Positions 1-14,446 of a stretch of 14,446 nt of DNA are shown here, one piece after another. Origin of the DNA: a virus (Duplodnaviria; Heunggongvirae; Uroviricota; Caudoviricetes); IMG/VR virus record IMGVR_UViG_3300013942_000056, positions 1 through 14,446 of that record; one strand, given 5' to 3'. Under the pieces are notes generated by a model. It was not told where the DNA came from. It searched no databases and saw only the letters and a program-made list of their open reading frames with translations. Within the stretch, counting starts at the first letter, position 1, and each line of letters starts with the position of its first letter. The translations under genes and the position numbers were made by a program.

Positions 1-706
1 CATCTCGGGAGATATCCCACTGTTGCAGGCCGGATTCAAACCATTCCTGCATTTTGTTCGCCACCTGCTCCTGCAACGCGCCGCTGCGGGTCCATGCCTG
101 CAACATTTCGCTGAAAGAAGGCAGATCAAAGAAGAAGTGTTCGGAATCACGCATTACCGGGGTAGCGCCAGAAACCACCGATTTCGGCTCGATCAATTCA
201 GTCGGGCTATATGTTGCGCCGCAGACTTCACAGTTATCGCCGTATTGATCTGGCGCTTTACATTTCGGGCAGGTGCCTTTTACAAAACGATCCGGCAGGA
301 ACATGCCTTTTTCCGGGTCGTACAACTGAGAGATAGTGCGGTTTTTAATAAAACCGTTCTCTTTCAGGCGAGTATAGATAAGCTCAGACAACTGACGGTT
401 CTCTTCGCTGTGCGTCGAGTGATAGTTGTCATAGCTGATGTTAAAGCCTGCGAAATCAGTCTGGTGTTCCTGACTCATTTCGCCAATCATCTGCTCCGGT
501 GTGATACCAAGCTGCTGTGCTTTCAGCATGATCGGCGTACCGTGGGCATCGTCGGCACAGATGAAATTAACCTCGTGGCCGCGCATTCGCTGGTAACGAA
601 CCCAGACATCAGCCTGGATGTGCTCCAGCATATGGCCGAGGTGGATTGAGCCGTTAGCGTACGGCAGCGCGCACGTCACCAGAATTTTCTTCGCGACTTG
701 GGTCAT
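1..706 (-). CDS. metG: Methionyl-tRNA synthetase, N-terminal part (3' end lies beyond window start)
   Basis: Reverse complement from 706 reads ATG ACC CAA GTC GCG AAG AAA ATT CTG GTG ACG TGC GCG CTG CCG TAC GCT AAC GGC TCA ATC CAC CTC GGC CAT = [25 protein letters not shown], the known MetRS N-terminus with the class I HIGH-type motif. The plus-strand ORFs 23..649 and 54..248 are antisense shadows of this gene. Confidence 0.95.
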
Positions 707-863
707 AGTAGGCATTACTTCTTTGTAGTGAAAAGGGGCTTGATAGTAACAAAATGGCCTTATGTCTGCCATGTGATAACAGCATTTCTCATAAATGATT
801 AAATGTCGTAGCTGGAGTACACTACAAGGCGACAATTGCGCAAATTAAAATAAAGGAGACGGG

Positions 864-1964
864 ATGAGCGAGTCCAAATCGCCGGATGCCCTGAGAGCAA
901 TGGTAGCCGGTACGCTGGCTAATTTTCAGCACCCAACCCTGAAACACAACCTGACTACGCTTAAAGCGTTACACCATGTTGCGTTGATGGATGACACACT
1001 GCATGTCGAACTAATCATGCCTTTCGTGTGGAATAAGCCTTTTGAAGACCTGAAAGAGCAATGTAGTGGTGATCTGCTCCGTATCACTGGAGCAAAGGCT
1101 ATTGACTGGAAGCTGTCGTACAACATTGCCACGCTTAAGCGCGTCAAAAACCAACCAGGCATTAATGGCGTTAAGAACATTATCGCCGTCAGCTCAGGCA
1201 AGGGCGGCGTGGGTAAATCCTCCACGGCGGTAAACCTGGCACTGGCGTTGGCTGCTGAAGGTGCGAAAGTTGGTATTTTGGATGCCGATATCTATGGTCC
1301 ATCAATTCCAAACATGCTGGGCGCGGAAAACCAACGTCCAACCTCACCTGACGGTACTCACATGGCACCTATCATGTCTCATGGCCTGGCAACCAACTCT
1401 ATTGGTTATCTGGTCACCGACGACAATGCAATGGTGTGGCGTGGACCGATGGCCAGCAAGGCGCTGATGCAGATGTTGCAGGAAACTCTATGGCCTGATC
1501 TGGACTATCTCGTTCTCGATATGCCGCCGGGCACTGGTGATATTCAGTTGACGCTGGCGCAGAACATTCCTGTAACTGGTGCGGTTGTGGTAACTACGCC
1601 GCAAGACATCGCGCTGATCGATGCGAAGAAAGGCATTGTGATGTTCGAAAAAGTCGAAGTGCCGGTACTGGGTATCGTCGAAAACATGAGTGTGCATATT
1701 TGCAGTAACTGCGGTCATCACGAGCCAATTTTTGGCACCGGTGGCGCACAGAAACTGGCCGAGAAATACAACACGCAGTTGTTAGGCCAAATGCCACTTC
1801 ATATCTCTCTTCGTGAAGATCTGGATAACGGAACACCAACCGTTATTAGTCGTCCAGATAGCGAATTTACGGCTATTTATCGTGACCTCGCAGATCGCGT
1901 TGCTGCCCAAATGTATTGGCAAGGTGAAGTAATACCTGGCGAAATCGCATTCCGCGCAGTGTGA
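864..1964 (+). CDS. apbC: Iron-sulfur cluster carrier ATPase Mrp/ApbC
   Basis: 366-aa ORF with AGGAG 7 nt upstream of ATG; Walker A GKGGVGKS; Mrp/NBP35-type CxxC (CSNCGHH); near-identity over long stretches to E. coli Mrp as recalled; divergent from metG as in E. coli. Confidence 0.93.
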   Translation: MSESKSPDALRAMVAGTLANFQHPTLKHNLTTLKALHHVALMDDTLHVELIMPFVWNKPFEDLKEQCSGDLLRITGAKAIDWKLSYNIATLKRVKNQPGINGVKNIIAVSSGKGGVGKSSTAVNLALALAAEGAKVGILDADIYGPSIPNMLGAENQRPTSPDGTHMAPIMSHGLATNSIGYLVTDDNAMVWRGPMASKALMQMLQETLWPDLDYLVLDMPPGTGDIQLTLAQNIPVTGAVVVTTPQDIALIDAKKGIVMFEKVEVPVLGIVENMSVHICSNCGHHEPIFGTGGAQKLAEKYNTQLLGQMPLHISLREDLDNGTPTVISRPDSEFTAIYRDLADRVAAQMYWQGEVIPGEIAFRAV

Positions 1965-1965
1965 T

Positions 1966-1989
1966 AAAAAGGCGGTGCATTGCACCGCC
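1966..1989. terminator. Bidirectional intrinsic terminator hairpin between mrp and the UmuD'-like gene
   Basis: AAAAA then GGCGGTGC (1971-1978), loop ATT, GCACCGCC (1982-1989); on the minus strand the hairpin is followed by TTTTTAT, so it is the better terminator for the minus-strand gene ending at 2002. Confidence 0.7.
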
Positions 1990-2001
1990 TAATCAGTTCT
2001 C

Positions 2002-2391
2002 CTACATCACGGGACAATCATCAAACTCGCCACTTCTTGCGTCGTTGATAATGTGAGTGATCACACCAAACACGGCATTGCTGCCCGTGCATCCATCGTC
2101 ATCCTTTGGCAATGCTTCCTTCTTACCGGTTCTTAAATCCTCCAGATGCTGACGTGGATACTTCCGGTATCTTTTTACGCGATATTCCCCATCCAGAGCG
2201 CATACAAGCAGAGAACCATCAACCGGGGTAAGTGAGGAATCGACCACCAGCAATGCACCCTGTAATATTCCCTCACGATGATGACTATCAGCTGCCCTCA
2301 TGAAGTAGGTCGCTGAAGGATGTCTAATTATCTGCTGATCAAGAGAAATACGGCTCTCAGCATAATCCGCCGCAGGAGAAGGGAAGCCCAT
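2002..2391 (-). CDS. UmuD'-like (HumD-type) S24 LexA-family peptidase lacking the N-terminal cleavable arm
   Basis: 129 aa beginning MGFPSPAADY, matching UmuD from its Cys24-Gly25 cleavage region onward (UmuD has GFPSPAADY); conserved Ser (AADSHHREG) and Lys (EYRVKRY) catalytic dyad positions; perfect SOS box directly upstream. Confidence 0.8.
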   Translation of the reverse strand: MGFPSPAADYAESRISLDQQIIRHPSATYFMRAADSHHREGILQGALLVVDSSLTPVDGSLLVCALDGEYRVKRYRKYPRQHLEDLRTGKKEALPKDDDGCTGSNAVFGVITHIINDARSGEFDDCPVM

Positions 2392-2407
2392 AATACTCGC
2401 CTCTTAA

Positions 2408-2452
2408 TACTGTATATACATACAGTATATGTTGAAGCTATATATTTTTGAA
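2408..2452 (-). promoter_or_regulatory. LexA (SOS) box overlapping a sigma70-like promoter of the UmuD'-like gene
   Basis: TACTGTATATACATACAGTA at 2408-2427 (CTGT-N8-ACAG palindrome, one centre mismatch to the consensus as recalled). Minus-strand reading gives -35 TTCAAA (plus 2447-2452), 17-nt spacer, -10 TATACT (plus 2424-2429) overlapping the box. Confidence 0.8.
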
Positions 2453-2722
2453 CTCTATCTCTTAAAAAAGATGTTAATAAGATGCTAACTATTGAAAGGC
2501 ATAAATATATACAATTCCAACAAACGTTATTTTTAACAAATTTTTTCTCTCTGTTGACTTTTGCGAAAGCCTTGTCTGGCCTAAATTGCGCGGAAGCTAC
2601 TTTTTCCTTCCTGAGTTATCCACAGAGTTATGCACTTGCATGCATAACCTATACACACTATCTTAATTCGCAAGACACTGATGTTGCGGTATTGAAGGTT
2701 CATTGGGTTAAAAATAGACATT

Positions 2723-2753
2723 AAAAAGCCCAGTTGACTAGGCTGGGCTTTTT
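2723..2753. terminator. Bidirectional intrinsic terminator-like hairpin
   Basis: AAAAAGCCCAG (2723-2733), 9-nt loop, CTGGGCTTTTT (2743-2753); perfect 11-bp complementarity with A/T runs on both sides. Confidence 0.55.
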
Positions 2754-3053
2754 AAAAGGAAACAGAGTTTGCGGCTCTGTTCCTGAGCCATAAGTATCTG
2801 GCGACTGAATTAAGATTAACCGAATGTACTGGATTCATCAAGAAACGTTGAGTGGTCATACCAGGTAATAATGACCATTTACTAAACATCGTTGTTCTCA
2901 AAGAAGATTTAAGTCCAGGTTTTTGGTGACTCTAAAACCTTACCTTAACTCGAAATCGTGCCGTAAGTATCTGGCGACTACAGATATTGCAACTGCAAAG
3001 GCAAGCCCAAAGGTATTTGCAGCTAGGCGCGATAAAACTAAGTGAGGCCTGTT

Positions 3054-3137
3054 ATGGTTAACTTACTGTTCAAAATCGTGCCGCCGATGTTCGCGATTAT
3101 CAAAGCGATCATTGAGTACGTAAACCAGCGTCCATAA
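3054..3137 (+). CDS. Putative 27-aa hydrophobic peptide MVNLLFKIVPPMFAIIKAIIEYVNQRP
   Basis: ATG preceded by GAGG at 6-nt spacing; stop TAA at 3135-3137; strong hairpin terminator 14 nt downstream; below the ORF-track size cutoff. No homolog recognised. Confidence 0.3.
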   Translation: MVNLLFKIVPPMFAIIKAIIEYVNQRP

Positions 3138-3150
3138 CGCTAGTTGCTAC

Positions 3151-3175
3151 AGGCCCCATCAAGAGCATGGGGCCT
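3151..3175 (+). terminator. Intrinsic terminator hairpin after the small ORF
   Basis: AGGCCCCAT (3151-3159), loop CAAGAGC, ATGGGGCCT (3167-3175), then CTTTAT on the plus strand. Confidence 0.6.
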
Positions 3176-3192
3176 CTTTATCGTACTATTGC

Positions 3193-3819
3193 TTATTTTT
3201 TACGGACTGAGTTGTTCACTGCTCTGGCAATCTTCTCCCGCAATTGCTGCGTTCCGTGGTACTGAACCGCAATATCTCTCAACTCGTTCACCAGTTCTCG
3301 AATCTGGTGATCTTTAAGCTCATTATTTGGGTGATTGGTAACAACTCTGGTTAATTCACCCTTGTCTTTTGCTCTTACGTATGCAGCTCTTGTGCATTCG
3401 ACCCATGTATTACCGCCTACATTAACTTCGTAGATTAGGCTGGACTTATCTGTCAATTCGGAACAAATACGGGCCGTGGTCTGGCAACTAGAGCATTCGC
3501 AGTTATCGCGGAAACCGTGATCTACCGGTCGAGAAAGAGGTTTAACTTTTTCATCCAACTTCATCACAGCATCGTGATAAGCGTTCCAGCCGTCATCTTT
3601 ACCAAGTTGATAAATCTCTGAAGGCTCCATGTAGTCTATATCGCAACCTTCTTCATCCGATCTATCTGGTCGCTTCCCTGGTAATCGCTCATAAAAACAA
3701 TTTCTGTCTCGACGTTCGGCTCTCAGTGCTAACGCAAGAAGTTGCTCAAGCGAGGTATTTGCACCAGCAATAATTTCATTGAGAATATCTTCTGTGAGAT
3801 CTTTCGCTACCGTGCTCAT
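3193..3819 (-). CDS. Hypothetical phage protein (208 aa), last gene of the coupled minus-strand operon
   Basis: ATG start at 3819 forms an ATGA overlap with the stop of the upstream gene; Cys-rich stretch (CECSSC...C); no family recognised. Confidence 0.6.
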   Translation of the reverse strand: MSTVAKDLTEDILNEIIAGANTSLEQLLALALRAERRDRNCFYERLPGKRPDRSDEEGCDIDYMEPSEIYQLGKDDGWNAYHDAVMKLDEKVKPLSRPVDHGFRDNCECSSCQTTARICSELTDKSSLIYEVNVGGNTWVECTRAAYVRAKDKGELTRVVTNHPNNELKDHQIRELVNELRDIAVQYHGTQQLREKIARAVNNSVRKK

Positions 3820-4199
3820 TTATCTCTCTCAGTATGTTGCGATGGCGTAAATTTGACGACATCAAATATTTTGGATGGCATCAACTTTATCCGCGAGCTT
3901 AGTTCGGCTCTTCTCTGTAATGCGGTTAATAATGTTTTCGTTCTGACGCCTTCGTGTATCCTCATCCCTGGCACAAGAACTACATCGCAGGGGAGATGCT
4001 CAGGTGACAAATCATTTTGGGCATCGCTAATCAGTCGTGTAATCTCTCTTTCAAGCCGACCGCCTAGCTCTGTTTTAGTGCAATGTTCTGACCAATCGCC
4101 AGCCTCAAGCAGCGCGAGAATGCTTAAAATATCGTCCAATAGATCAGTGGTATTATCGACTTCCTTCTGAAACTCACCGGCTACTGATTTATGCATCAT
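3816..4199 (-). CDS. Hypothetical phage protein (127 aa)
   Basis: ORF with 4-nt overlaps to both neighbours (translational coupling). Confidence 0.55.
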   Translation of the reverse strand: MMHKSVAGEFQKEVDNTTDLLDDILSILALLEAGDWSEHCTKTELGGRLEREITRLISDAQNDLSPEHLPCDVVLVPGMRIHEGVRTKTLLTALQRRAELSSRIKLMPSKIFDVVKFTPSQHTERDK

Positions 4200-4849
4200 T
4201 CGTCATCCTCATCCGAGTCATCCTCATCACAGGATGAGAGTAGTGGGTTAGTCATTCGCCCTACTTGAGTGGCGTAGCCACGCCGACAGAGATTGCGCAG
4301 CACACTGTATATTTCGAACATCTCGGTTCGTTCATCGCCAACATCAAGCTCAGATGCTATAGCGTGGCATTCAGTCGCGAGAGCCGATATTTTCTGAAAT
4401 AACTCTGCATTATTCACTGTTCGACTCCTGCGGCGTTCTGGTAGTGGCATCCAGTGTGTGACATTGCTAATCAGACCATATTCATTAGTTTGAGGATGGT
4501 TGCCGTTATCGTCTCCGTATTTAAGACTCTCCATAAAGCCATAATGCCTATCACCATTAACGCTCACAAAGCCGTAATAAGCAGGTATAACGCCGATCTC
4601 ACACGTAACCAGTAAAGGAAAACTAGTTCTCCAATTTAGCTCGCCAATTACAGGCATTCGCTCACTACAGCTTATCCAACCATCCTTAGATGCGGCTGTA
4701 TTGGCATAGGCCTTACGGTGCTTCTGTAGCTCTGCTGCAATCGCTCTCACGACTTCAACTGGTGCCCTTGCAGCAAACTCAATGTTGGTGATCAGCTCAT
4801 TAAGATATTTCTCGCTTGGGTAGCATTTCTTATTGTTAACGGTGGTCAT
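4196..4849 (-). CDS. Phage protein, DUF551-like (217 aa) with acidic C-terminal tail
   Basis: Contains WISCSERMP ... THWMPLPE, recalled as typical of prophage DUF551 proteins; C-terminus DEDDSDEDDE; stop/start overlap with neighbours. Confidence 0.5.
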   Translation of the reverse strand: MTTVNNKKCYPSEKYLNELITNIEFAARAPVEVVRAIAAELQKHRKAYANTAASKDGWISCSERMPVIGELNWRTSFPLLVTCEIGVIPAYYGFVSVNGDRHYGFMESLKYGDDNGNHPQTNEYGLISNVTHWMPLPERRRSRTVNNAELFQKISALATECHAIASELDVGDERTEMFEIYSVLRNLCRRGYATQVGRMTNPLLSSCDEDDSDEDDE

Positions 4850-5034
4850 TAGGCAGCTCTCTCAACAACAAGCAATTCGTCGTAGTCATAATCAGTTTCG
4901 GAACCATCCGTACCGAACAGAGTCACTTTGTCATTTTCCATCCAAAAAGATTTAACCGCACATTGTTGACCTTTAGATGTTATGAGCACATCACCAGGGA
5001 TTACGTCTTCAGCGCGAACCTCTAGTGTTCTCAT
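4849..5034 (-). CDS. Hypothetical small phage protein (61 aa)
   Basis: ATG start at 5034 in ATGA overlap with upstream stop; its own stop overlaps the next start (TAATG). Confidence 0.45.
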   Translation of the reverse strand: MRTLEVRAEDVIPGDVLITSKGQQCAVKSFWMENDKVTLFGTDGSETDYDYDELLVVERAA

Positions 5035-5561
5035 CGTGCTGCCCCCTCTTTGGTGAAAATGCCTGCTGCAATGCTGTTTATGATGCTGTCAGTGCATGGA
5101 GTAGAAAGCTGGGCATCTCCAGCAATTTTCATGACCTCAACATCCGCATATCGAATACCGAGGTGTATCAGACCGGCTATACCTGACTTAAGTCGAACAT
5201 TTTCCATAAACAGATCTTTTTCCCGCTGTTTAGCGGCTTCCAACTCCATCGACAATTTTTCCAACTGCTCTTTATGCTTCTTGTATTCCTGATACGCGTG
5301 CCAAGACTGACCTTTGCGCACACTATCAGCGATATCAGCAACCTGCTCTGGTGTTAGCGTGGTCAGTGGCTGTGATGGAAAAATCATCACTTGCCCGGCA
5401 TCCCAATCAAAACCCGCCTGAATTGACTGAACCTCAACTGATGGTGTTGAACCGATGCGACCAGGCGAATGAACAACGATCGTTACATCCATATCGCGAC
5501 GATGGCTGTGGTTGTTGGACAAAATACGATTCACCAACTCAGAAAATTTGGATAATTTCAT
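5031..5561 (-). CDS. Hypothetical phage protein (176 aa; start at MKLSKF)
   Basis: The internal ATG at 5561 gives an ATGA overlap with the stop of the upstream gene and has GGAGAGAAAGAGAGA upstream; the longer ORF-track extension to 5690 would overlap the upstream gene by 130 nt. Confidence 0.55.
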
Positions 5562-5881
5562 GCTGATCTCTCTTTCTCTCCCCGGATAATTCTGTTGCAC
5601 ACATCCACACACTCGTCGCAGATGAAAACGGCGTCCCCAGCAATTAACTTTTTGACGGCGTACTGGGATTTGTTGCAGAAGCTGCAACAAAGTGTTCGCC
5701 TGACTGATAAGGATGGAGCGCCAGATGTCAGCCGCTCCATATCGTTCTTGCGACGCAATATCACACGGCTGAACTCAACCAGTTTCTCCGGGGATATCTC
5801 CTCCTCCGTAGCGAGCGTCTCTAGTCGTTCGAGTATGTTGAAGGCTTTTTCTTGGGTAATAGCAGAGTGCGATGTGGTCAT
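5558..5881 (-). CDS. Phage protein with C-terminal ClpX-type C4 zinc-finger domain (107 aa)
   Basis: C-terminal [34 protein letters not shown] closely matches the ClpX N-terminal zinc-binding domain (E. coli ClpX has [34 protein letters not shown] as recalled). Confidence 0.7.
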
Positions 5882-6279
5882 TTTCTTTCACCTTCAATGT
5901 TCGTGGCGCTGGCAAGATTGTCCTTGCGAAGAAGAGCGGCTATGCGCTTACTTCCATCCGAGATAACGCCCTCGTAATACTCACGCTGCTCGTTGAGTTT
6001 TGATTTTGCCAACTCCAGTTGTTTTGTTAGTTCCGCAATACGGCAAACATCGTTGATACGCGTTTCCTCTAATGCGTTGATCTCATCCAGTAGTGCCAGC
6101 ACGGTTTCTGGTCCGGCCAGAAATTTGAAGGCGTTGAGGGCATCAATATCAACACCGCTATCTTTAAGTTCCTGTTCGCATATCAGATCATCATCAACTG
6201 GCAACATTAACAGGCGTTCCATTGCCGGAATTGCACGCTCTGCCGCCTCACGCAGTGCCTGATAGTCAATCTTGCTCAC
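5878..6279 (-). CDS. Ead/Ea22-like coiled-coil phage protein (133 aa), GTG start
   Basis: Start codon is GTG at 6279 with AAGGAG 7 nt upstream and a GTGA overlap with the upstream stop; [17 protein letters not shown]-terminus resembles Ea22-like proteins (from memory). Confidence 0.5.
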
Positions 6280-6776
6280 TGGATGACTCCTTTACGAAGC
6301 TGTTCAGCAATACTTACGCATATCTCTGCGCCTCTAATCAGCCCCGGAACGTTCTTGTTTGGCCCAACTTCACCATCAACAAAATCAATCATCGCGTTAC
6401 GAGCCATATCCACGCCCTGCGCACGTACTTCAGCCAGAAAAGCATCGGTGGCTGGAGTCTCCGTTAATTCGCTAACCCAATTATCTCCGTGTTCCTCGGC
6501 ACACATCGCATCGAATGCTCGCTCAGATTCTTTCAGGGCTGCATTCTCCGCCGCTAATGCGTCTCTCTGCGCTCGCAACTTCTCAATTTCGGCAGCCATG
6601 TAGTAACCAACCATAGCGAAAGTGGCGAAAGGGTAGTCAGAATCATCAGGAGATACGGAGGCCATTAGCAGACCATCGTGCATGTTCTGGCTTCCATCAG
6701 TGATGGATACCGCATAAGAATCGCTGGTTTCCCGTTTATACAATACGACGACCGGGTTCTTGATTTTCTCTCTCAT
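6276..6776 (-). CDS. Ea22-like phage protein (166 aa)
   Basis: ATG at 6776 overlaps the upstream stop (TAATG); contains ETPATDAFLAEVRAQGVDMARNAMIDF, similar to a motif recalled from Ea22-like prophage proteins. Confidence 0.5.
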   Translation of the reverse strand: MREKIKNPVVVLYKRETSDSYAVSITDGSQNMHDGLLMASVSPDDSDYPFATFAMVGYYMAAEIEKLRAQRDALAAENAALKESERAFDAMCAEEHGDNWVSELTETPATDAFLAEVRAQGVDMARNAMIDFVDGEVGPNKNVPGLIRGAEICVSIAEQLRKGVIQ

Positions 6777-7318
6777 TACGATGCCTCTAACTTATCTAAC
6801 TCTTTCAGCCCTTCACGTACCGCGTTCACAATGCGTTCCAGATACTGGTATTTCGGGTTTGGTACCGTTGGCCAGTCGGCATACCACGGATCATCACCAA
6901 AGAGATTCAGCAGTTTGTTACCGACGCCGAAACAACAGCAGCTTTCTTTTACGTCATCGGTGTTTTCCGCCTCGTCCCACATTTCACGAGCCAGTACGGC
7001 GTCGATTTCTCTCTCTCTTCGTAACTTTATGATTTCTGACTTCACGAAAAGCAGATTTGCATCGTTGTCATCGTCGACCGTGCTTCGCAGTTGAGAGTCG
7101 AAATAGCCGATTAGATACTCGTTGCTGACCCGCTTAATGAACGTCTGCACATCATCACCGCCCATAGCAAACCAAGCCGCAGTCCACGCTTTTCCGTAGC
7201 AGATGATGGTGATTCTTCCCTTACCAGGTTCGTAGTTTTCAATCATCACTCGAACCGGATCGAGGCGTTCCAGATCCGTCAGCACAAAGGAAAGAACATC
7301 TATTTTTTCGACCTTCAT
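6776..7318 (-). CDS. Hypothetical phage protein (180 aa; start at MKVEKI)
   Basis: The ORF-track start at 7330 is GTG; the ATG at 7318 forms an ATGA overlap with the stop of the HD-domain gene, so it is the preferred start. Confidence 0.55.
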   Translation of the reverse strand: MKVEKIDVLSFVLTDLERLDPVRVMIENYEPGKGRITIICYGKAWTAAWFAMGGDDVQTFIKRVSNEYLIGYFDSQLRSTVDDDNDANLLFVKSEIIKLRREREIDAVLAREMWDEAENTDDVKESCCCFGVGNKLLNLFGDDPWYADWPTVPNPKYQYLERIVNAVREGLKELDKLEAS

Positions 7319-7956
7319 GCAGCCTCCCACGCGCTCCAGATCAGCGATTTGTGTTTTTCATAACGTTTGATGTGTACCGGTTTCAGAAGCGCAATACCTT
7401 CAGTGACTTTCGCCATTGCGCTTAATAGCAACGGGTGTTCTATACCTATCCTCTCCATGTACTCGACAACATCAGCGTTGGCACCAATCTCTTTGCCGTG
7501 AAAGAGTACGTCCAGCATCAGTTCTTTCTCTGCGAGGTAGACAGCTGAAAACTCGGGATCGCGACTCACGATAGAAGAGGTATTGTCGAGCAGGTCAGCC
7601 AGCTTGATCATGCGCGTCTGCATGTCGAGATTTTGCTCCAGCTCCCGGACATTGATGATGAAACGCTGTATTCGATTGCCGTCTTCTGGCCTTGCAATGT
7701 TGGTCAGAGCCTGAACCATTTCAGCTACGCGCTCACCGAAGTGATCACGAACCATCTCTATGGTTACATGGGTGTCTTCGACCACATCATGCAGAAGCGC
7801 CGCGATTTGCATCTCCACGGTTCCGTCATGCAATGCAACAATCTCTCGGACAGCAACCGGGTGGTTGATGTAGTCTTCGCCGGTATATTTTCTTTTCTGA
7901 CCAACGCCACCATGAGCGCCAGCGGCGAACATATGAGCTTCGGAAATACTAGACAT
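7315..7956 (-). CDS. HD-domain (p)ppGpp hydrolase-like protein, SpoT/RelA hydrolase-type small alarmone hydrolase (213 aa)
   Basis: HPVAVREIV ... AALLHDVVEDT matches the His...HD...ED signature of the RelA/SpoT hydrolase domain; first gene after a terminator; ACGGAG RBS. Confidence 0.7.
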   Translation of the reverse strand: MSSISEAHMFAAGAHGGVGQKRKYTGEDYINHPVAVREIVALHDGTVEMQIAALLHDVVEDTHVTIEMVRDHFGERVAEMVQALTNIARPEDGNRIQRFIINVRELEQNLDMQTRMIKLADLLDNTSSIVSRDPEFSAVYLAEKELMLDVLFHGKEIGANADVVEYMERIGIEHPLLLSAMAKVTEGIALLKPVHIKRYEKHKSLIWSAWEAA

Positions 7957-8024
7957 TCTTAACTCCGTTGTTTTCTAGTTGTGGTTATTTTCACAAATAA
8001 GAAAAGGTAGAAAACAATTTATTT

Positions 8025-8045
8025 AAGGCCACAACTTATGGCCTT
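8025..8045 (-). terminator. Intrinsic terminator separating the MTase unit from the HD-domain operon
   Basis: AAGGCCA (8025-8031), loop CAACTTA, TGGCCTT (8039-8045); minus-strand downstream flank AAATAAATTGTTTTCT; sits 30 nt after the stop of gene 8076..8456. Confidence 0.6.
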
Positions 8046-8075
8046 TATTTATTCATGCCGAAGGATTTGTAGCGT

Positions 8076-8456
8076 CTAATTGCCGGATAAAATGGGGTGA
8101 GGTGCTTGCCAGTAGGCTCCACCGGTCCATGTGAACCCCATGCGAATAAGAGTGTTTATTGCGGCTTTGGTAGACTCCGATTCGACACTGGCTTTTCGAA
8201 ACTCTTGAACCTCTTTCGCCAACTTGTATGTAATTGTGCAGGGGACGATTGCAGCCCAGCCTTTCTCATGACTGTTAATGACCATCTGGATGTGACCATC
8301 CAGAATAGGTTGATTAGGCATGTTATTGAAAATGTCTGCCTGTTTTTGAATGTGAAGAAAAAGCCTTGCCAGCTCCATTTGCTCACTACGAGACAAGGGA
8401 TTATCAAGAGGGCTTTTTGCAAAAGCGGCTATACGCTGTGCGTCAATGCCAAACAT
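8076..8456 (-). CDS. Hypothetical protein (126 aa)
   Basis: ATG at 8456 overlaps the stop of the upstream gene (TGATG), indicating translational coupling; no family recognised. Confidence 0.55.
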   Translation of the reverse strand: MFGIDAQRIAAFAKSPLDNPLSRSEQMELARLFLHIQKQADIFNNMPNQPILDGHIQMVINSHEKGWAAIVPCTITYKLAKEVQEFRKASVESESTKAAINTLIRMGFTWTGGAYWQAPHPILSGN

Positions 8457-9160
8457 CAGCGCACCTCACCATCTTTATGGCTGGAGTTAACTTCCGCCAT
8501 TAAATGTCTGACGTAATCGACAAGAGAGCCACCTGGTGGAATCTGGCATTCCTCAACTAACTGGAAGTAGATATCCGCTGCATTACGTGTATTGCTACCC
8601 GCACATATTCTTTCTTCCCGAAGTGCATGAAGCTCGTTGATCAAACGGTCACACTCTCCGTTACGCTGATCCACAACGGCCTCAAGCTCTGCGACGCGTT
8701 CACCTGGCGTCTTACCTTCTTTGCGTTGGATGGTAACGACGAAATCGCCAATTGCAGGGACGTTGTAATCCAGCTCAAGGTAGTTTTTGGCACCGCTGCG
8801 GACGAACTCACCCGCGAACATGGTGGCGAACATCGCAGAGGCCACTTCGCCGTTGAAAAGTGACTCCAGATCTAACGGAGTCCCGGCATCAAGAGCCTCT
8901 TTTGCTGTATCCATTGCATCCATGAACCGATCAAACTCATTGGCGCGCTTTTCCAGGTTTTTCCATTGCTCGCTCCAACGTTTGGCAACGAAGTCTATGA
9001 ATGTTTTCGCGGATTCATCAAAATCCCCCTCAAACTTAACGATGCCTTTATCAATAATGATCTGGCCTACCGCATCCTCTGCATAACCTTTCAATGTAAA
9101 CTTGAAAGGAAAATCAGAATGGCCTGTGACGTTAAAATGCTCTAACTGGAGGTTGTTCAT
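8456..9160 (-). CDS. Hypothetical protein (234 aa)
   Basis: ATG at 9160 preceded by AGAGAAAAACAC, the same leader type found at two other genes in this block; no family recognised. Confidence 0.55.
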   Translation of the reverse strand: MNNLQLEHFNVTGHSDFPFKFTLKGYAEDAVGQIIIDKGIVKFEGDFDESAKTFIDFVAKRWSEQWKNLEKRANEFDRFMDAMDTAKEALDAGTPLDLESLFNGEVASAMFATMFAGEFVRSGAKNYLELDYNVPAIGDFVVTIQRKEGKTPGERVAELEAVVDQRNGECDRLINELHALREERICAGSNTRNAADIYFQLVEECQIPPGGSLVDYVRHLMAEVNSSHKDGEVR

Positions 9161-9203
9161 GTGTTTTTCTCTTATCGTTTAGTAACTACATTCTTACACA
9201 AAT

Positions 9204-9221
9204 TAGGTAAGTATTTACCTA
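9204..9221 (-). terminator. Weak AT-rich hairpin immediately after the MTase stop (possible attenuator)
   Basis: TAGGTAA (9204-9210), loop GTAT, TTACCTA (9215-9221), abutting the stop codon at 9222-9224. Confidence 0.3.
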
Positions 9222-10907
9222 TCATTTAACGCGTTTGAAAACGTATACGCTGACTGTGATCCCTGTGTCTTCAAACTCGTTGGTAAACGACTTCCCTCTG
9301 GCATAAACGTAATTATCCATCGTCATCCAGTCCAGTATTGGCGCAGTGCCCGGCAATACTGCTACAAGACGCCCGCCGACTTTCAGATGCCCCAGCGCAG
9401 CCAGCGTGTGCTCTCTATGACGACCAAGCGAGTACGGCGGGTTCATAACGATTTTGTCGAACTGATAACCTACGTTGTCCTCAGACCACTTTATGAAGTC
9501 GCAGCAAATCGTGTTCGTATACCCTTTTCCGCGCAGGATATCAGCGAAGAGAGGTGCGATTTCTATGCAGGTAACATCTTCCAGATCGGCGTTGATATAG
9601 GCCAGAAGATCCCCACGTCCGGCTTGAGGCTCCAGCAGCTTCTCACCAGACTTCAATTCAGTGGCTCTGGCAACGTACTCAGCAATCAAGCGTGGGGTAG
9701 GGTAGAACTGGTGTGATTTTGTATCCGGTATTAATCCGGTAGCCACAATCGTATTTAGCGTATGGCCGATCTCATACGGGAACTGCCAGTGCTTTTTCTC
9801 CTGCACGCCGCCAATGAAGCTCAGTGTGCGCTCAAGCTCTTCCACCTGCGACTTCTGGAGAGCTGAATCAGAGAAGTACCATACGCCTTTGTCTTTGCTT
9901 AATCGCCCGTCACGAAGCGCAGTGCGAACCGGCACGGAGATCGTCTTCTGGATTAACCCGAACTGCTTTGGTGCCCGTGTTTTTGGCGCGGTGCGACATG
10001 GCGCGGGGATTGCAGCAGGCATACTGTAAGCCAGCACCTCATTCAACTTCCAGGCCACGTCAGGATGTATTTCAAAGTGAACGTTGCCGTTCTTGAACAT
10101 CTTCACGCGCATTAGATTTCCATCGACGTTCATCCAGTCACCGGTCTGGCAGTCGTTTGCCCGATACGCAGCTGATAGCACCTCAGCAGTGCGGTTGATG
10201 GTAATAAATTCTTTGTGCGCGAAGAAATGAAGCAAGACACGCAGATCGTCGATATAGTCCTCTTTGCGATAGTTCACACTAACGCTGTCCCGCCAGAAAT
10301 CAGAAATGCAGTCAGCGATTATCAGACGTTCGCTGAAACCGTTTGTCTTATTTGTCTTGTGCGCAGGACTCAGCGCCTTAAACAAGCCATACACGCGCTC
10401 AGAGAGATATTTGTGCCTGTCATTCAGCAAATTAAGCATCGTGGGTATGACCGTTTCTGCTTTGAACTCCGGTACACCAACGAACTCTTTAACCTTCATC
10501 TGGTAGCCGGTTCTGTCAGTTTTGATGACTTCCTGTTTGCCCTCTATAAACTGCTCGCGCCACTCATCTCGACGGGAAGCTGGCATGATCAGCAAAACGT
10601 TAGTCATGTCCGTGACCTTCCTCCAGTACTCGGCCCAAATATTCTGTTTCACCCATTCCAGATCGACTTTATCCAACCAACCTCGATTTAAACGCGAGCG
10701 ATCTTCATCTGGTCGATGGTTTAGTCTCAGCAGGCGATTAATCATGTTGTGGCGTTCGTCGCCATAAACGAAGTCGTGTACCTGATACATGAAGGCGATC
10801 TCTTTCTCGCACTCGGCCACAATTTCGTGGATGACGTTCATTTCCTGCCGATAGTCGATAGCAGTGTTTGAGTTGGCATCGTCGATGATGGAAAGGGCTG
10901 TATTCAT
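9222..10907 (-). CDS. 561-aa protein: unknown ~400-aa N-terminal domain fused to a C-terminal gamma-type amino-methyltransferase domain (NPPY; probable N6-adenine DNA MTase)
   Basis: C-terminal region has the SAM-binding motif LEPQAGRGDLL followed about 50 aa later by KIVMNPPY, the order found in gamma-class N6-adenine MTases and HsdM; FYPTP precedes it. NPPY is also used by HemK/PrmC protein-glutamine MTases, so the target is inferred. Confidence 0.7.
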   Translation of the reverse strand: MNTALSIIDDANSNTAIDYRQEMNVIHEIVAECEKEIAFMYQVHDFVYGDERHNMINRLLRLNHRPDEDRSRLNRGWLDKVDLEWVKQNIWAEYWRKVTDMTNVLLIMPASRRDEWREQFIEGKQEVIKTDRTGYQMKVKEFVGVPEFKAETVIPTMLNLLNDRHKYLSERVYGLFKALSPAHKTNKTNGFSERLIIADCISDFWRDSVSVNYRKEDYIDDLRVLLHFFAHKEFITINRTAEVLSAAYRANDCQTGDWMNVDGNLMRVKMFKNGNVHFEIHPDVAWKLNEVLAYSMPAAIPAPCRTAPKTRAPKQFGLIQKTISVPVRTALRDGRLSKDKGVWYFSDSALQKSQVEELERTLSFIGGVQEKKHWQFPYEIGHTLNTIVATGLIPDTKSHQFYPTPRLIAEYVARATELKSGEKLLEPQAGRGDLLAYINADLEDVTCIEIAPLFADILRGKGYTNTICCDFIKWSEDNVGYQFDKIVMNPPYSLGRHREHTLAALGHLKVGGRLVAVLPGTAPILDWMTMDNYVYARGKSFTNEFEDTGITVSVYVFKRVK

Positions 10908-10947
10908 AATTGCACCATTAAGAAGTGATTTGTTTAATGGTGCAATT
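10908..10947 (-). promoter_or_regulatory. Perfect 14-bp inverted repeat over the MTase translation initiation region
   Basis: AATTGCACCATTAA (10908-10921), 12-nt spacer, TTAATGGTGCAATT (10934-10947); the left arm directly abuts the ATG at 10907, so the RBS lies inside the stem or operator. Confidence 0.55.
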
Positions 10948-11010
10948 ATTTCAAAAATGAAAAGGTACTAAATAGAAATAAACAGGCAATCCTTCAAATA
11001 AAGGCATTGG

Positions 11011-11625
11011 CTAATCATACTTGGAGGTATTTATCACCAGAATTTTGTTTGTATAAATCTTCTTAATATCCCATGTGACATTACCGGAATACCATTGACC
11101 GTTATATACTTGGTTTCCAGTTGCACCTGTCATTGTTACATAGACAGGTCTGTCGTAATCGGTTCGTCTATAGTTATATACCCCAACCATAGCAGGCATT
11201 ACCGCACATGGATACCCCATATCTATTGTAAATTGAGGGTCAGAAATAGTGATAAGTTTCGCATCAAGGGGCATCATCTCACCGTGATACACCATTGCGC
11301 CTGCGCTGTTATACATGGCAATGCCATAGCCAGAATGTGATAACACCATATCAGAAAAAGCATAAACTGTTATTGTTCCGGGGCTACCATTTACCTGATG
11401 CAATCTGAGAGCATTGTATCCGTTACTATGCTCATGAATAAACATCATGTTCGCCTTATTACTGCTTTTTATGAAGAAAAAGCATGATTTGTTTGATGGG
11501 ATTGATGTTTGAAAAACAGAACCTTTAGATGTAGACATTGTCCCTTTATTAATCAGATTTTGCGGAGTAAATTCTGGACTCATCCACAAACTTCCATCTG
11601 ATTGAGTAATTGACATCCCGAACAT
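11011..11625 (-). CDS. Hypothetical Tyr/Asn/Gly/Thr-rich protein (204 aa), AT-rich moron
   Basis: The ORF-track start at 11682 is TTG; the ATG at 11625 has GGGGA 6 nt upstream and lies 2 nt after the stop of the upstream 93-aa ORF; the region is visibly AT-rich relative to the flanks. Confidence 0.45.
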   Translation of the reverse strand: MFGMSITQSDGSLWMSPEFTPQNLINKGTMSTSKGSVFQTSIPSNKSCFFFIKSSNKANMMFIHEHSNGYNALRLHQVNGSPGTITVYAFSDMVLSHSGYGIAMYNSAGAMVYHGEMMPLDAKLITISDPQFTIDMGYPCAVMPAMVGVYNYRRTDYDRPVYVTMTGATGNQVYNGQWYSGNVTWDIKKIYTNKILVINTSKYD

Positions 11626-11627
11626 AA

Positions 11628-11909
11628 TTATCCCCAGTATGTGTATATGTAAGAACCAAGCCCCGTATATAAATTTGACCAACTAACCGTATTTCCATTA
11701 ATAGTAACTGTTGGAACAGGTAAATTAATGTAGTTGTCGTTGTTAAGAGGCATCAATGACCACACGGCATGTAGCGATTTACCCGGTGGCGGATTGGAGT
11801 ACGTCTTAGAGCCTGATGACGCAGTAAATCGATCAAGAAAAAAAATAGGAGTAAGGAAGCCAGTAACGTTAATTCCTTTATTGTTGTAAATCCCTGTACC
11901 GTATGCCAT
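11628..11909 (-). CDS. Hypothetical Tyr/Asn/Gly-rich protein (93 aa), AT-rich moron; possibly the N-terminal part of a frameshifted gene
   Basis: ATG at 11909 with AAGGA upstream; composition similar to the following ORF, which is in a different frame. Confidence 0.4.
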   Translation of the reverse strand: MAYGTGIYNNKGINVTGFLTPIFFLDRFTASSGSKTYSNPPPGKSLHAVWSLMPLNNDNYINLPVPTVTINGNTVSWSNLYTGLGSYIYTYWG

Positions 11910-11936
11910 TTTTCATCCTTGTTTTTTATCAACACA

Positions 11937-11960
11937 ATATGGCCGATCATGCGGCCATAT
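11937..11960 (-). terminator. Hairpin (8-bp stem) after the 189-aa gene; possible attenuator or operator
   Basis: ATATGGCC (11937-11944), loop GATCATGC, GGCCATAT (11953-11960), 4 nt after the stop codon at 11965-11967; the downstream flank is not T-rich. Confidence 0.35.
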
Positions 11961-11964
11961 CAGA

Positions 11965-12534
11965 TCAATTAGAGCTTTGAAAGGCTTTGTGTGGCTGTGT
12001 TGCGAGGTTATGTCGATGGCTTAACTCACGCATCATGTCTTCAAGCCGACTCTTTGTGTCGTCGAGTTGGTCGGCCATTGCTCCCAAAAGCTGACGAACG
12101 GCCATCGGATCATCGCTGTTTAGTGATGGCATTTTATAACCCGCCTGAGAAGACATAAGATTGAACGCAGACATCAACATCGTTAGAGAGGATTTAAGCC
12201 CAGCAATTTCACGATCTTTGCTGGCAATAATCGCCTCACTCTTGTTAGTGTCATCAGTTCGTTGAGTCTCGCTCACCATATCCAAAGTCGCCTGCAACTT
12301 ATCAGCGCGCTCTTTTTCAGCAAGATAATGAACACCGAAATGATGTGCTAAAGCTACAACCTGAGTTGGCTCTTCAAAGGTGGACTCAAAATTAAGTGCT
12401 GTAACCACTCTCTCAAATATGGAAACGTCTTCTATTCCTCGAAGAATGGCTAACATTTTGACCAGTTCATTAGCATCCATTTCTTCGAATAAGGCGTTTT
12501 GTTCATCAGCTATCGCTTTGCATTTCTTGCACAT
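11965..12534 (-). CDS. Hypothetical protein (189 aa)
   Basis: ATG at 12534 preceded by AGGAAAAACAC and the AGAAAACAACTTGTTT leader motif; no family recognised. Confidence 0.6.
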   Translation of the reverse strand: MCKKCKAIADEQNALFEEMDANELVKMLAILRGIEDVSIFERVVTALNFESTFEEPTQVVALAHHFGVHYLAEKERADKLQATLDMVSETQRTDDTNKSEAIIASKDREIAGLKSSLTMLMSAFNLMSSQAGYKMPSLNSDDPMAVRQLLGAMADQLDDTKSRLEDMMRELSHRHNLATQPHKAFQSSN

Positions 12535-12552
12535 GTGTTTTTCCTAATGCTT

Positions 12553-12568
12553 AAACAAGTTGTTTTCT
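12553..12568 (-). promoter_or_regulatory. Leader motif AGAAAACAACTTGTTT (palindromic core AAACAA-C-TTGTTT), copy 1
   Basis: Lies 18 nt upstream of the ATG at 12534; near-identical copy at 13281-13297 and partial copies at 7967-7976 and 13808-13822. Confidence 0.45.
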
Positions 12569-12649
12569 TATTGGCTTTATTGTGATGTGGCATAAAAGGG
12601 GAGCAAGCTAAACGTAAAGGTGCAAACTCTCTATTTCGGTCAACGAAAC

Positions 12650-12671
12650 ACAAGGGCCATTTGGCCCTTGT
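12650..12671 (-). terminator. Intrinsic terminator after the TerB / small membrane protein pair
   Basis: ACAAGGGCC (12650-12658), loop ATTT, GGCCCTTGT (12663-12671); 2 nt after the stop at 12674-12676; minus-strand downstream flank GTTTCGTTG. Confidence 0.55.
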
Positions 12672-12673
12672 CA

Positions 12674-12832
12674 TTAACACGTTGCTTTACGGACTAGCGG
12701 ATAAGCGAAGTAGATCGCCAGACCAATGAGGACGCCATCAGAAATGACAGACATCATCTTTCCCGTAAAATCCACCAACACCGCCATCACCAGAAGAGCA
12801 ATGACGGTCACAAGCCGGAATCTCTCAAGCAT
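12674..12832 (-). CDS. 52-aa two-helix membrane peptide translationally coupled to the TerB-like gene
   Basis: Minus-strand translation from the ATG at 12832 gives MLERFRLVTVIALLVMAVLVDFTGKMMSVISDGVLIGLAIYFAYPLVRKATC; the ATG overlaps the TerB-like stop (TAATG); two hydrophobic segments; terminator immediately downstream. Absent from the ORF track (below size cutoff). Confidence 0.5.
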   Translation of the reverse strand: MLERFRLVTVIALLVMAVLVDFTGKMMSVISDGVLIGLAIYFAYPLVRKATC

Positions 12833-13257
12833 TAGAGATAAGCATCCAGTGACAACTGAAGCGCCTGTGCGATCTTTTTCAGGGCCAGCTCTTCTTGTTC
12901 GCCAATACCGTCTTGGTCGGCAATATCAAGGCACAGACACAGTACATCTACTGCATCATTAGTCCCGGCCACATCAGCCAGCTCACGTAAAGCCTGGGCA
13001 TTAGCGCGGCGCGGTGAGGCTTCGTATTGAGCACGGATATTGGCGCTCATTTGGGCAATCTCACCAGCAAACGGAGAAAACGCAGGCAGAGCTGCAATTG
13101 TTTTCTCAAGAATGGAAATTTCCTTTGCGTCGCATGTGCCATCGGCATAGGAGATCATGTACGCGCCCCACACGGTGGCTTCAACCGCATCTCGGTTCTC
13201 CATTTTTTTGACCTCGATAACAGCTTTACGAGTTTTCTTTTTGAATAAACCTAACAT
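12832..13257 (-). CDS. TerB-like (tellurite-resistance TerB family) protein (141 aa)
   Basis: Two repeats of the TerB-like pattern: AYMISYADGTCDAKEISILEKTIAAL and LCLCLDIADQDGIGEQEELALKKIAQAL (compare TerB IAVASDGVSSEEK and IAVAKSDGNFDDDEKSAVREIALAL as recalled); AAGGAAAG RBS; leader motif upstream. Confidence 0.6.
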   Translation of the reverse strand: MLGLFKKKTRKAVIEVKKMENRDAVEATVWGAYMISYADGTCDAKEISILEKTIAALPAFSPFAGEIAQMSANIRAQYEASPRRANAQALRELADVAGTNDAVDVLCLCLDIADQDGIGEQEELALKKIAQALQLSLDAYL

Positions 13258-13280
13258 GTGCTTTCCTTTTGTTATTTGTT

Positions 13281-13297
13281 AAAACAAGTTGTTTTCT
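13281..13297 (-). promoter_or_regulatory. Leader motif AGAAAACAACTTGTTTT, copy 2, extended by further AACAA half-sites
   Basis: Minus strand reads CTAGAAAACAACTTGTTTTAACAAATAACAAAAGGAAAGCACATG: a 7-1-7 palindrome AAAACAA-C-TTGTTTT followed by two more AACAA repeats and the RBS. Confidence 0.45.
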
Positions 13298-13350
13298 AGT
13301 TACATGAATTGCTTACGAAAAGACGGTCAATGCATATGCACTAACAACCG

Positions 13351-13548
13351 TCAGAAATAACCAAGTACCGAACCGACTGGAAAAACAAAAATCCCAACAA
13401 CACGAGCCAAGGTCATACCAGCCTGAAACTGGAGATCACCAGAGCAAACGAGTTTTACAATGTTCGATACCCAACCGGCGGCCATGAGAGCTATGAAAGC
13501 CAGAATCGCCAGCCAAGTTTTTCCAAAGTGATTTGAAAACCAGTTCAT
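13351..13548 (-). CDS. Small membrane protein (65 aa, two hydrophobic segments)
   Basis: ATG at 13548 forms an ATGA overlap with the stop of the upstream signal-peptide gene; hydrophobic stretches WLAILAFIALMAAGWV and VVGIFVFPVGSVLGYF. Confidence 0.55.
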   Translation of the reverse strand: MNWFSNHFGKTWLAILAFIALMAAGWVSNIVKLVCSGDLQFQAGMTLARVVGIFVFPVGSVLGYF

Positions 13549-13796
13549 ACAACCGCCTTAGTCACAGCATGATCCTGAGTAACTGGATGAACTTGAGGTA
13601 TCGCATCCACCGTCATCCCATCCAGAGTGACAGGACGCTCTACTGGAGTGGTGGTAATTGTCGTCGACGGAGGTGTGGTGATGGATGAACCCGGCATCAA
13701 AAGGCTCTGGCCGGCTGGAACGGCTACCGTCGCCAGTGAAACTATAATGAGAACGTAGGCCATTGGTTTCAGCCTCTTTCTTTGAAAATTTTCCAT
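13545..13796 (-). CDS. Small Pro/Thr-rich protein with N-terminal signal-peptide-like or membrane-anchor segment (83 aa)
   Basis: MENFQRKRLKP (basic n-region) + MAYVLIIVSLATVAVPAG (hydrophobic core) + Pro/Thr-rich tail; AGGA 8 nt upstream of ATG; lies entirely inside the alternative frame of ORF 13558..14052. Confidence 0.5.
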   Translation of the reverse strand: MENFQRKRLKPMAYVLIIVSLATVAVPAGQSLLMPGSSITTPPSTTITTTPVERPVTLDGMTVDAIPQVHPVTQDHAVTKAVV

Positions 13797-14052
13797 TCGA
13801 ACTGTCCTTGTTGTTTTTCTCCTTCACTAAAGGCCGTGTACTTTTCGCTTCGCGTGAAGAACCAGAGGTAACAATCGCCCCCACGTTCGCAACAACTGAC
13901 GCTTGCTTATCTAAACGTTCATTCAGCAACCGAACGGCAGTCTCTAGTTCATCAAGACGTGACAGAACACGACCGCTAAATAATTCGGCCAAAATTTGAC
14001 GTAGTGAACGAGGACGTTTAGTTGCAGAAGTGAAATAGGTTTGACGTGCCAT
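13558..14052 (-). CDS. Hypothetical basic protein (start MARQTYF); true 3' end uncertain
   Basis: ATG at 14052 (the ORF-track start at 14100 is GTG inside the poly-C/G junction). First ~75 aa look protein-like (RVLSRLDELETAVRLLNERLDKQ); the remainder is Ser-rich low complexity and overlaps gene 13545..13796 in another frame. Confidence 0.35.
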   Translation of the reverse strand: MARQTYFTSATKRPRSLRQILAELFSGRVLSRLDELETAVRLLNERLDKQASVVANVGAIVTSGSSREAKSTRPLVKEKNNKDSSNGKFSKKEAETNGLRSHYSFTGDGSRSSRPEPFDAGFIHHHTSVDDNYHHSSRASCHSGWDDGGCDTSSSSSYSGSCCD

Positions 14053-14099
14053 GTGGACTCCATCCAGTGTCAGAAAGAGTTGCCCCCCGTGGCATTCCA

Positions 14100-14160
14100 C
14101 ACGCCCCCCCGGCCCCCCCCTCCCCGTTGAGGAGGGCCCAGTGGAGGGGAGCCGCCCCCC
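14100..14160. other. Poly-C/G low-complexity junction (probable chimeric assembly or sequencing artifact)
   Basis: CCCCCCC, CCCCCCCC and CCCCCC runs within 60 bp, coinciding with the end of the fmt homology and a clear rise in GC content to the right. Confidence 0.6.
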
Positions 14161-14446
14161 GGTATTTGGGCAGCAGGGACGAATGAACGTTGATGGAGCC
14201 GTAAGGTGGGGTGTTCAGAATGTCCTCCGGCAGGATGCGGCCATAGGCCGCCACCACGATCAGCTCCGGATGCAGCTCCCGCACCAGGGCCAGGGCCGTG
14301 CCGTCCCGCATTTTCGTGGGCTGATACACGGACAGCCCCTGGGCCAGGGCGTATTCCTTCACCGGTGAAAAGGCCAGCTTATGCCCCCGGTTTTTGGGGC
14401 GGTCCGGCTGGGTGAACACGCCGCAGATCTCGTGCCCGTCCTCCAC
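14120..14446 (-). CDS. fmt: Methionyl-tRNA formyltransferase fragment (residues ~25-135 only), GC-rich, non-enterobacterial codon usage
   Basis: Minus-strand translation [24 protein letters not shown] ... VVAAYGRILPEDIL ... INVHSSLLPKYRGAAPLHWALLNGE aligns with the Fmt N-terminal domain (E. coli [45 protein letters not shown]). Homology stops at the poly-G tract; the N-terminus lies beyond the window end. Confidence 0.75.

Follow-up and report, generated by a model that had tools for sequence, protein, structure and literature searches.

A Firmicute fmt fragment at the end of an Escherichia coli phage-plasmid contig is very probably the product of a chimeric assembly

Introduction

The window (the whole 14,446-nt stretch of viral DNA analysed here) ends on its right side with part of fmt, the gene for methionyl-tRNA formyltransferase (Fmt), which follows closely on DNA of enterobacterial phage type. 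Does an enterobacterial phage element really carry this gene, or were two unrelated genomes brought together during sequencing and assembly? The first-pass annotation favored the second reading and suggested poly-G read tails as the link. We compared both flanks, and the bases between them, with their closest relatives. The features around the junction are listed here.

13558-14052, minus strand: last genuine phage-plasmid gene, a 164-aa hypothetical protein with its ATG at 14052, corresponding to CDS WP_021533181.1 in pTHO-010-2
14053-14083: final 31 nt of phage-plasmid identity, comprising the leader and Shine-Dalgarno sequence of the 164-aa gene; identity to the references ends at 14083
14084-14103: 20-nt orphan, CCCCCGTGGCATTCCACACG on the plus strand, clearly of neither parent in alignments to both
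14104-14146, minus strand: fmt codons about 120-134, in register, with 9-10 miscall-like substitutions by comparison with the fmt loci L124 and L004
14147-14446, minus strand: clean fragment of fmt (codons 20-119), truncated at the contig end; 300/300 identity to the contigs L123 and L124; Pfam Formyl_trans_N
14083-88, 14104-10, 14113-20 and 14155-60, plus strand: runs of at least six C
14018-14446, minus strand: chimeric open reading frame of 142 aa by translation, made up of the Fmt fragment, error-laden bases and the phage-plasmid leader; stop at 14018-14020

Results

Base composition at the junction

GC content rose markedly to the right of about 14100, as the first-pass annotation had described, from 0.475 in 13900-14099 to 0.695 in 14100-14299. 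All four runs of six or more C found in the 14.4-kb window on either strand lay within 14083-14160. The total number of such runs was unremarkable (7 overlapping matches vs 3.2 expected, with 17 of 200 shuffles reaching 7), and the striking feature is their confinement to 78 nt, not their number. The run at 14155-60 is a native GGGGGG of fmt, those at 14104-10 and 14113-20 were made by the miscall-like substitutions described below, and the one at 14083-88 lies in the orphan. The boundary had been placed exactly at the C runs; the runs do cluster there, but the coordinates needed correction, as phage identity ends at 14083, clean fmt at 14147, and error-laden fmt extends to 14104.

The left flank

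When 5,426 E. coli genomes were searched, positions 13300-14083 had 100% identity to a large number of RefSeq E. coli plasmids, about 108-120 kb in size, and 208 of the 210 matching places were on plasmids. The whole of 1-14083 was collinear with E. coli plasmids of this size at 97-99% identity, with the exception of an accessory block at 6730-7981, and 89-91% of the 14.1 kb matched plasmids at 97-99%. The phages Cyrano, PhiR41_1 and CMS-2020a were likewise collinear with this region, and a 561-aa DUF4942/methylase-like protein (9222-10907) was 92% identical to its syntenic counterpart in Salmonella phage SSU5. On these matches, we assign 1-14083 to an extrachromosomal SSU5-group E. coli phage-plasmid, not an integrated prophage. 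The term "enterobacterial prophage" in the first-pass annotation was therefore right as to enterobacterial phage DNA and wrong as to integration. It had also been remarked that an early regulatory region is missing at this end. Such a region is indeed absent, and this carries no special meaning, being trivial for a 14-kb contig of an element of about 110 kb.

All 5,426 E. coli genomes matched the window at 80-90%, because of their chromosomal copies of metG and apbC. The phage-plasmid has its own metG at 1-706 (minus strand), cut by the left contig end, and its own apbC at 864-1964 (plus strand). The 1.25-kb block at 6730-7981 is without counterpart in pAVS0223-B, the closest plasmid, whose corresponding stretch is 91 nt long. 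This block falls among small DUF551 and ead/Ea22-like accessory genes, and the difference is ordinary accessory-gene variation. At 12674-13257 (minus strand), the window encodes a TerB-family protein and a DUF3927 protein, which bear the annotations P1 TciA-like and TciB-like in phage Cyrano.

The phage-side break

None of the 209 E. coli records that matched the query from 13300 onward (5,426 genomes searched) covered it beyond base 784, which is window position 14083, and none of four phage genomes (Cyrano, PhiR41_1 and two CMS-2020a) extended further. In the three references read (among them L001 and L084), GAGTTGC is followed by GGCTGGCGATTGCCAGCCGC. The hairpin after the break in these references has 9 pairs, 8 of them GC, with a dG of about -25 kcal/mol; it scores as terminator-like on both strands, and rnhA comes next. 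Only the first two stem bases, G14082 and C14083, are retained in the window.

In pTHO-010-2 (L001, 2399-3062), the annotation gives the rnhA gene past the break as frameshifted; in pAVS0223-B (L084, 15537-16130), the gene is intact. An ungapped comparison of the two plasmids to the right of the hairpin gave 478 mismatches in 1,400 nt, which probably reflect indels. Variability of the rnhA region could be a reason for a tip in the assembly graph at this point.

The right flank

Positions 14147-14446 were identical at 300 of 300 bases to two human-gut metagenome contigs (L123 and L124), and at 296 of 300 (98.7%) to the genome of Brotocaccenecus cirricatena CLA-AA-H272. The 4 differences from B. 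cirricatena were considered as errors and this was rejected, as they also occur in the assemblies with 300/300 identity and are natural strain variation. In a scan of species-representative genomes, the Fmt fragment had 99% amino-acid identity to B. cirricatena CLA-AA-H272 and 98% to Oscillibacter sp. CAG:241, and the other matches from protein searches were Oscillospiraceae Fmt fragments. Judged by identity at both levels, the source of 14147-14446 is best taken to be fmt of a B. cirricatena-like member of the Oscillospiraceae, a gut Firmicute.

Translated from 14446 on the minus strand, the window gives an Fmt fragment including SSLLPKYRGAAP, then aberrant residues up to the stop at 14018. 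The minus strand between 14446 and 14121 matched positions 29-133 of the 181 in the Pfam Formyl_trans_N profile (E = 1.7e-26), in agreement with the initial statement that only the central part of the Fmt N-terminal domain is encoded. The native homologue in L124 has both Formyl_trans_N and Formyl_trans_C in one reading frame; the window copy holds neither a complete N-domain nor any C-domain. Its N-terminus is missing only because the contig ends at 14446. In the native context examined, fmt directly adjoins def, in the order priA-def-fmt in L124 and def-fmt-rsmB-rlmN-PP2C in L002.

The fmt piece had no match of 80% or more in PLSDB or INPHARED. Phages or plasmids naturally carrying this fmt were considered as a source and rejected, since the only matches, at 66-75%, were to Oscillospiraceae-type replicons and to unannotated "Bacteriophage sp." faecal contigs. 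The fmt piece is not a gene of the phage-plasmid element.

Several irregularities were seen in native copies of this gene. The fmt open reading frame of L124 (318-1616, minus strand), a low-coverage contig, is 432 aa long from the first upstream start, vs about 307 aa implied by L002; the extra length may come from an artefactual upstream start or from read-through into the gene that follows. In L002, fmt is split by a 1-nt frameshift (at about 1950-1975) from GGGG to GGG in GATGCC(G)nACATTCT, where 56 of 57 loci have GGGG, and this split probably represents one more assembly error at a G run of this gene. Several ENA gut assemblies also have the fmt of this species split into two open reading frames ending in GTFCMC and a stop (P0002, P0003, P0010 and P0101). 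Finally, a truncated Fmt of the same clade (P0005, 138 aa, 37 member sequences, one 700-nt contig) departs from the family after NGERETG (continuing RVHYQSSRPDQ), a few codons from where the fmt of the window degrades, and may mark a second artefact-prone or rearranged spot.

Substitutions between 14146 and 14104

From 14146 down to 14104 the ungapped fmt register continued, with 9 of 43 bases differing from L124 and 10 of 43 from L004. Relative to the contigs with 300/300 identity, mismatches numbered 0 of 300 in the clean part vs 9 of 43 in this zone (Fisher p = 3.5e-9). The substitutions were ordered along the fmt strand. A>C changes came first (14146, 14143 and 14134), followed by changes of C, A or T to G at 14119, 14115, 14113, 14108, 14106 and 14104, and also at 14123 when L004 was the reference. 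In every case (9/9 against L124, 10/10 against L004; chance about 5e-5) the substituted base was the preceding base on the fmt-coding strand, a pattern that on the plus strand equals copying of the following base and that fixes neither read direction nor chemistry. The substituted base also equalled the following base in only 5 of 10 cases, with L004 as the reference.

At the protein level, most substitutions hit positions (I, N, I, T and V) with little or no variation among 80 relatives, and the residues that they produce were seen in 0 of the 80. The first miscall, at 14146, lies 5 nt past GGCGGC (14156-14151), with GGC at 14156-14154 and again at 14153-14151 on the minus strand. These properties mark 14104-14146 as bearing what we read as a signature of miscalls, not natural variation.

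The orphan at 14084-14103

In unanchored local alignments, the orphan matched the fmt continuation and the phage hairpin no better than shuffles did (P = 0.27 and 0.57). Its position and length are exactly those of the remaining phage hairpin, and an anchored alignment to that hairpin gave TGGC, ATT, CCA and CGCC blocks. The anchored alignment had P = 0.002-0.05 vs random phage-plasmid segments and 0.02-0.38 vs composition-matched shuffles, values that vary with gap costs. A hairpin remnant is suggested by this alignment only as a hint, and we do not claim it. Adapter read-through was rejected as an origin, as the orphan had no match to TruSeq, Nextera, P5 or P7 sequences.

Search for the junction in other assemblies

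We looked for the same junction in independent assemblies, an observation that the first-pass annotation had set against its own reading. Neither IMG/VR nor the metagenome contig collection had an exact match (0 in each) to junction 30- and 35-mers; the contig of the window is itself absent from the collections scanned, and these zeros speak only for other assemblies. The junction was likewise absent from the 209 E. coli records and the 4 phages, and 141 fmt-bearing loci (about 980 kb) contained no phage-plasmid DNA. Each flank thus matches references of its own, from different organisms and at 100% up to the transition zone, with miscall-like bases between them and a junction that was reproduced in none of the independent assemblies and genomes searched. 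The initial view that enterobacterial phage DNA and a foreign fmt were joined artefactually is borne out by these results.

The 142-aa chimeric product (P0001) is already present in a public protein collection, as a singleton cluster with the Pfam label PF00551 (Formyl_trans_N), from one JGI contig of 14,446 nt; the window thus represents a whole contig.

Discussion

The chimeric contig end is not a real feature. We are highly confident, from the sequence comparisons, that it is an in-silico chimera in which an SSU5-group phage-plasmid and an Oscillospiraceae fmt were connected through a miscalled bridge, with no real DNA junction. Genuine phage-plasmid DNA stops at 14083, where the stem of a strong GC hairpin starts, and genuine fmt DNA stops at 14147, just past the GGGGGGCGGC motif. 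The roughly 63 nt between them would be low-quality base calls that represent no cellular DNA sequence. On the fmt side, the template would have been read in register while non-G bases were increasingly called as the preceding base (A>C at first, then A, C or T>G), and a G-rich stretch would thereby be turned into G runs, which are C runs on the plus strand. Both parents live in the gut and would have occurred in the same sample, and the assembler may have joined their two dangling contig tips through this error-laden, low-complexity bridge. A small number of poor reads, or low-complexity k-mers that were shared, would have produced the join. It is possible, and compatible with the consensus, that two error tails met at a shared low-complexity C7GGC8 (14104-14120) and were joined there.

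As to the errors themselves, the consensus points to a sequence-specific type such as that produced by dephasing on Illumina instruments. Nakamura et al. 2011 (PMC3141275) described sequence-specific Illumina errors with lagging-strand dephasing, in which consecutive miscalls occur a few bases past GGC and the miscalled bases are the preceding reference base. An inverted repeat longer than 8 bp is the other trigger in that study, which also cites earlier reports of an excess of A>C and C>G. We propose dephasing here because both break points sit at these two published triggers. On the fmt side, GGC precedes the first miscall, in the read direction, by no more than about 10 nt, the limit taken from PMC3141275. 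On the phage side an inverted repeat of more than 8 bp is present, and phage-plasmid identity stops at base 2 of its stem.

Sequencers with two-colour chemistry produce poly-G tails, and poly-G trimming is practiced for this reason. The cause named by the first-pass annotation was of this kind: signal lost in dark cycles is called as G, and the resulting tails become a common point through which unrelated contigs are joined. The error-laden bases are G-rich on the fmt-coding strand and lie at the end of fmt identity, as such tails would. An excess of T>G/A>C miscalls in NT[TG] contexts has moreover been documented on NovaSeq (Fu et al. 2026, PMC13218037), and the three A>C changes are T>G at NTG contexts on the plus strand. 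However, the longest run is 8 bases, with no long uninterrupted G tail; correct C is kept in register within the G-rich stretch (14111-12 and 14103); the first errors are A>C; and the G runs are followed by the non-G TGTGGAATGCCAC before clean phage sequence begins. T is also retained at 14145, 14140, 14133 and 14130 while the adjacent A became C, and on this ground a simple two-colour model of "green channel loss" was rejected. In-register, dephasing-type miscalls in a template that was already G-rich would fit the bases better than dark cycles. The bases therefore do not bear out poly-G tails as the cause, and we regard them as an unlikely, though possible, contributor.

A physical chimera made in vitro, with ligation or PCR template switching at the hairpin linking an fmt fragment to a phage-plasmid fragment as the library was prepared, is an unlikely explanation. 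A de Bruijn join needs k-mers that lead from the error-laden bases into clean phage sequence, so one read or more must have been truly chimeric or very odd, and a read of this kind is what library preparation could supply. The phage break at the foot of a stable hairpin is also a plausible site of polymerase stalling or template switching. A clean ligation or switch would nevertheless leave an abrupt junction, not 43 nt of in-register, direction-consistent miscalls and a 20-nt orphan. Such a chimera may have acted together with poor base calling, but by itself it does not suffice as an explanation.

We give almost no credence to a real in-vivo recombinant, in which an E. coli SSU5-type phage-plasmid very recently captured the Oscillospiraceae fmt fragment, and just as little to a version in which illegitimate recombination took place at the rnhA terminator hairpin and the odd bases are repair scars rather than miscalls: both organisms live in the gut and the phage-plasmid already has translation-related cargo (metG) beside variable accessory regions, but 100% nucleotide identity to a Firmicute gene would need an extremely recent cross-phylum transfer, the fragment is non-functional and its decay affects invariant residues, the hairpin/terminator of the phage is lost, the contig runs on for 363 nt after phage-plasmid identity stops at 14083, and the junction occurs in none of the collections searched.

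The significance of the chimeric assembly is one of quality control only. The last 363 bases (14084-14446) should be trimmed before host assignment, an auxiliary-gene call or a claim of gene transfer is made. If the end is left untrimmed, an E. coli phage-plasmid seems to carry a Firmicute fmt beside its genuine metG, and a scan for auxiliary genes could be misled by the combination of metG at one end and a spurious fmt at the opposite end. The error is no longer confined to the contig, as the 142-aa chimeric frame stands in public data as a "Formyl_trans_N" singleton. The pattern also offers a read-free diagnostic for such joins, namely a fall from 100% to about 79% in identity to the nearest relatives, with every change copying the preceding base, that starts just past GGC motifs or at a terminator hairpin.

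Compared with known systems, neither parent is exceptional. SSU5/pHCM2-group phage-plasmids of Enterobacteriaceae were reportedly described by Pfeifer and colleagues in 2021. The left flank shares the collinearity of this group and the SSU5 homologue, and nothing in it is unusual; it differs from its closest plasmid in the 1.25-kb accessory region. On the right, residues 20-119 reproduce an Oscillospiraceae Fmt N-domain exactly. Unlike a full Fmt, the window copy lacks the N-terminus, the remaining N-domain with its conserved ELDAGD motif farther downstream, and all of the C-domain.

The bridge shares with two-colour poly-G/T>G artefacts (PMC13218037) a bias toward G calls on one strand and the A>C / T>G class at NTG contexts, and it differs from them in the absence of a long G tail and in the C and T bases retained in register. 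With the Illumina dephasing errors of PMC3141275 it shares the GGC trigger, the copies of the preceding base, the A>C and C>G changes and a terminator-like inverted repeat of more than 8 bp. In that study reads were mapped to references and the other strand outvotes the errors, whereas here the errors survived into the consensus; very low coverage is therefore implied. The contig as a whole resembles inter-genome chimeras from short-read metagenomes, in which unrelated genomes of one community are joined at a contig end, with flanks identical or nearly so to references, a low-complexity join and a junction unique to one assembly. In most chimeras described, the join lies at a shared repeat or a conserved gene, whereas the two parents here share no sequence and the bridge consists of miscalled bases.
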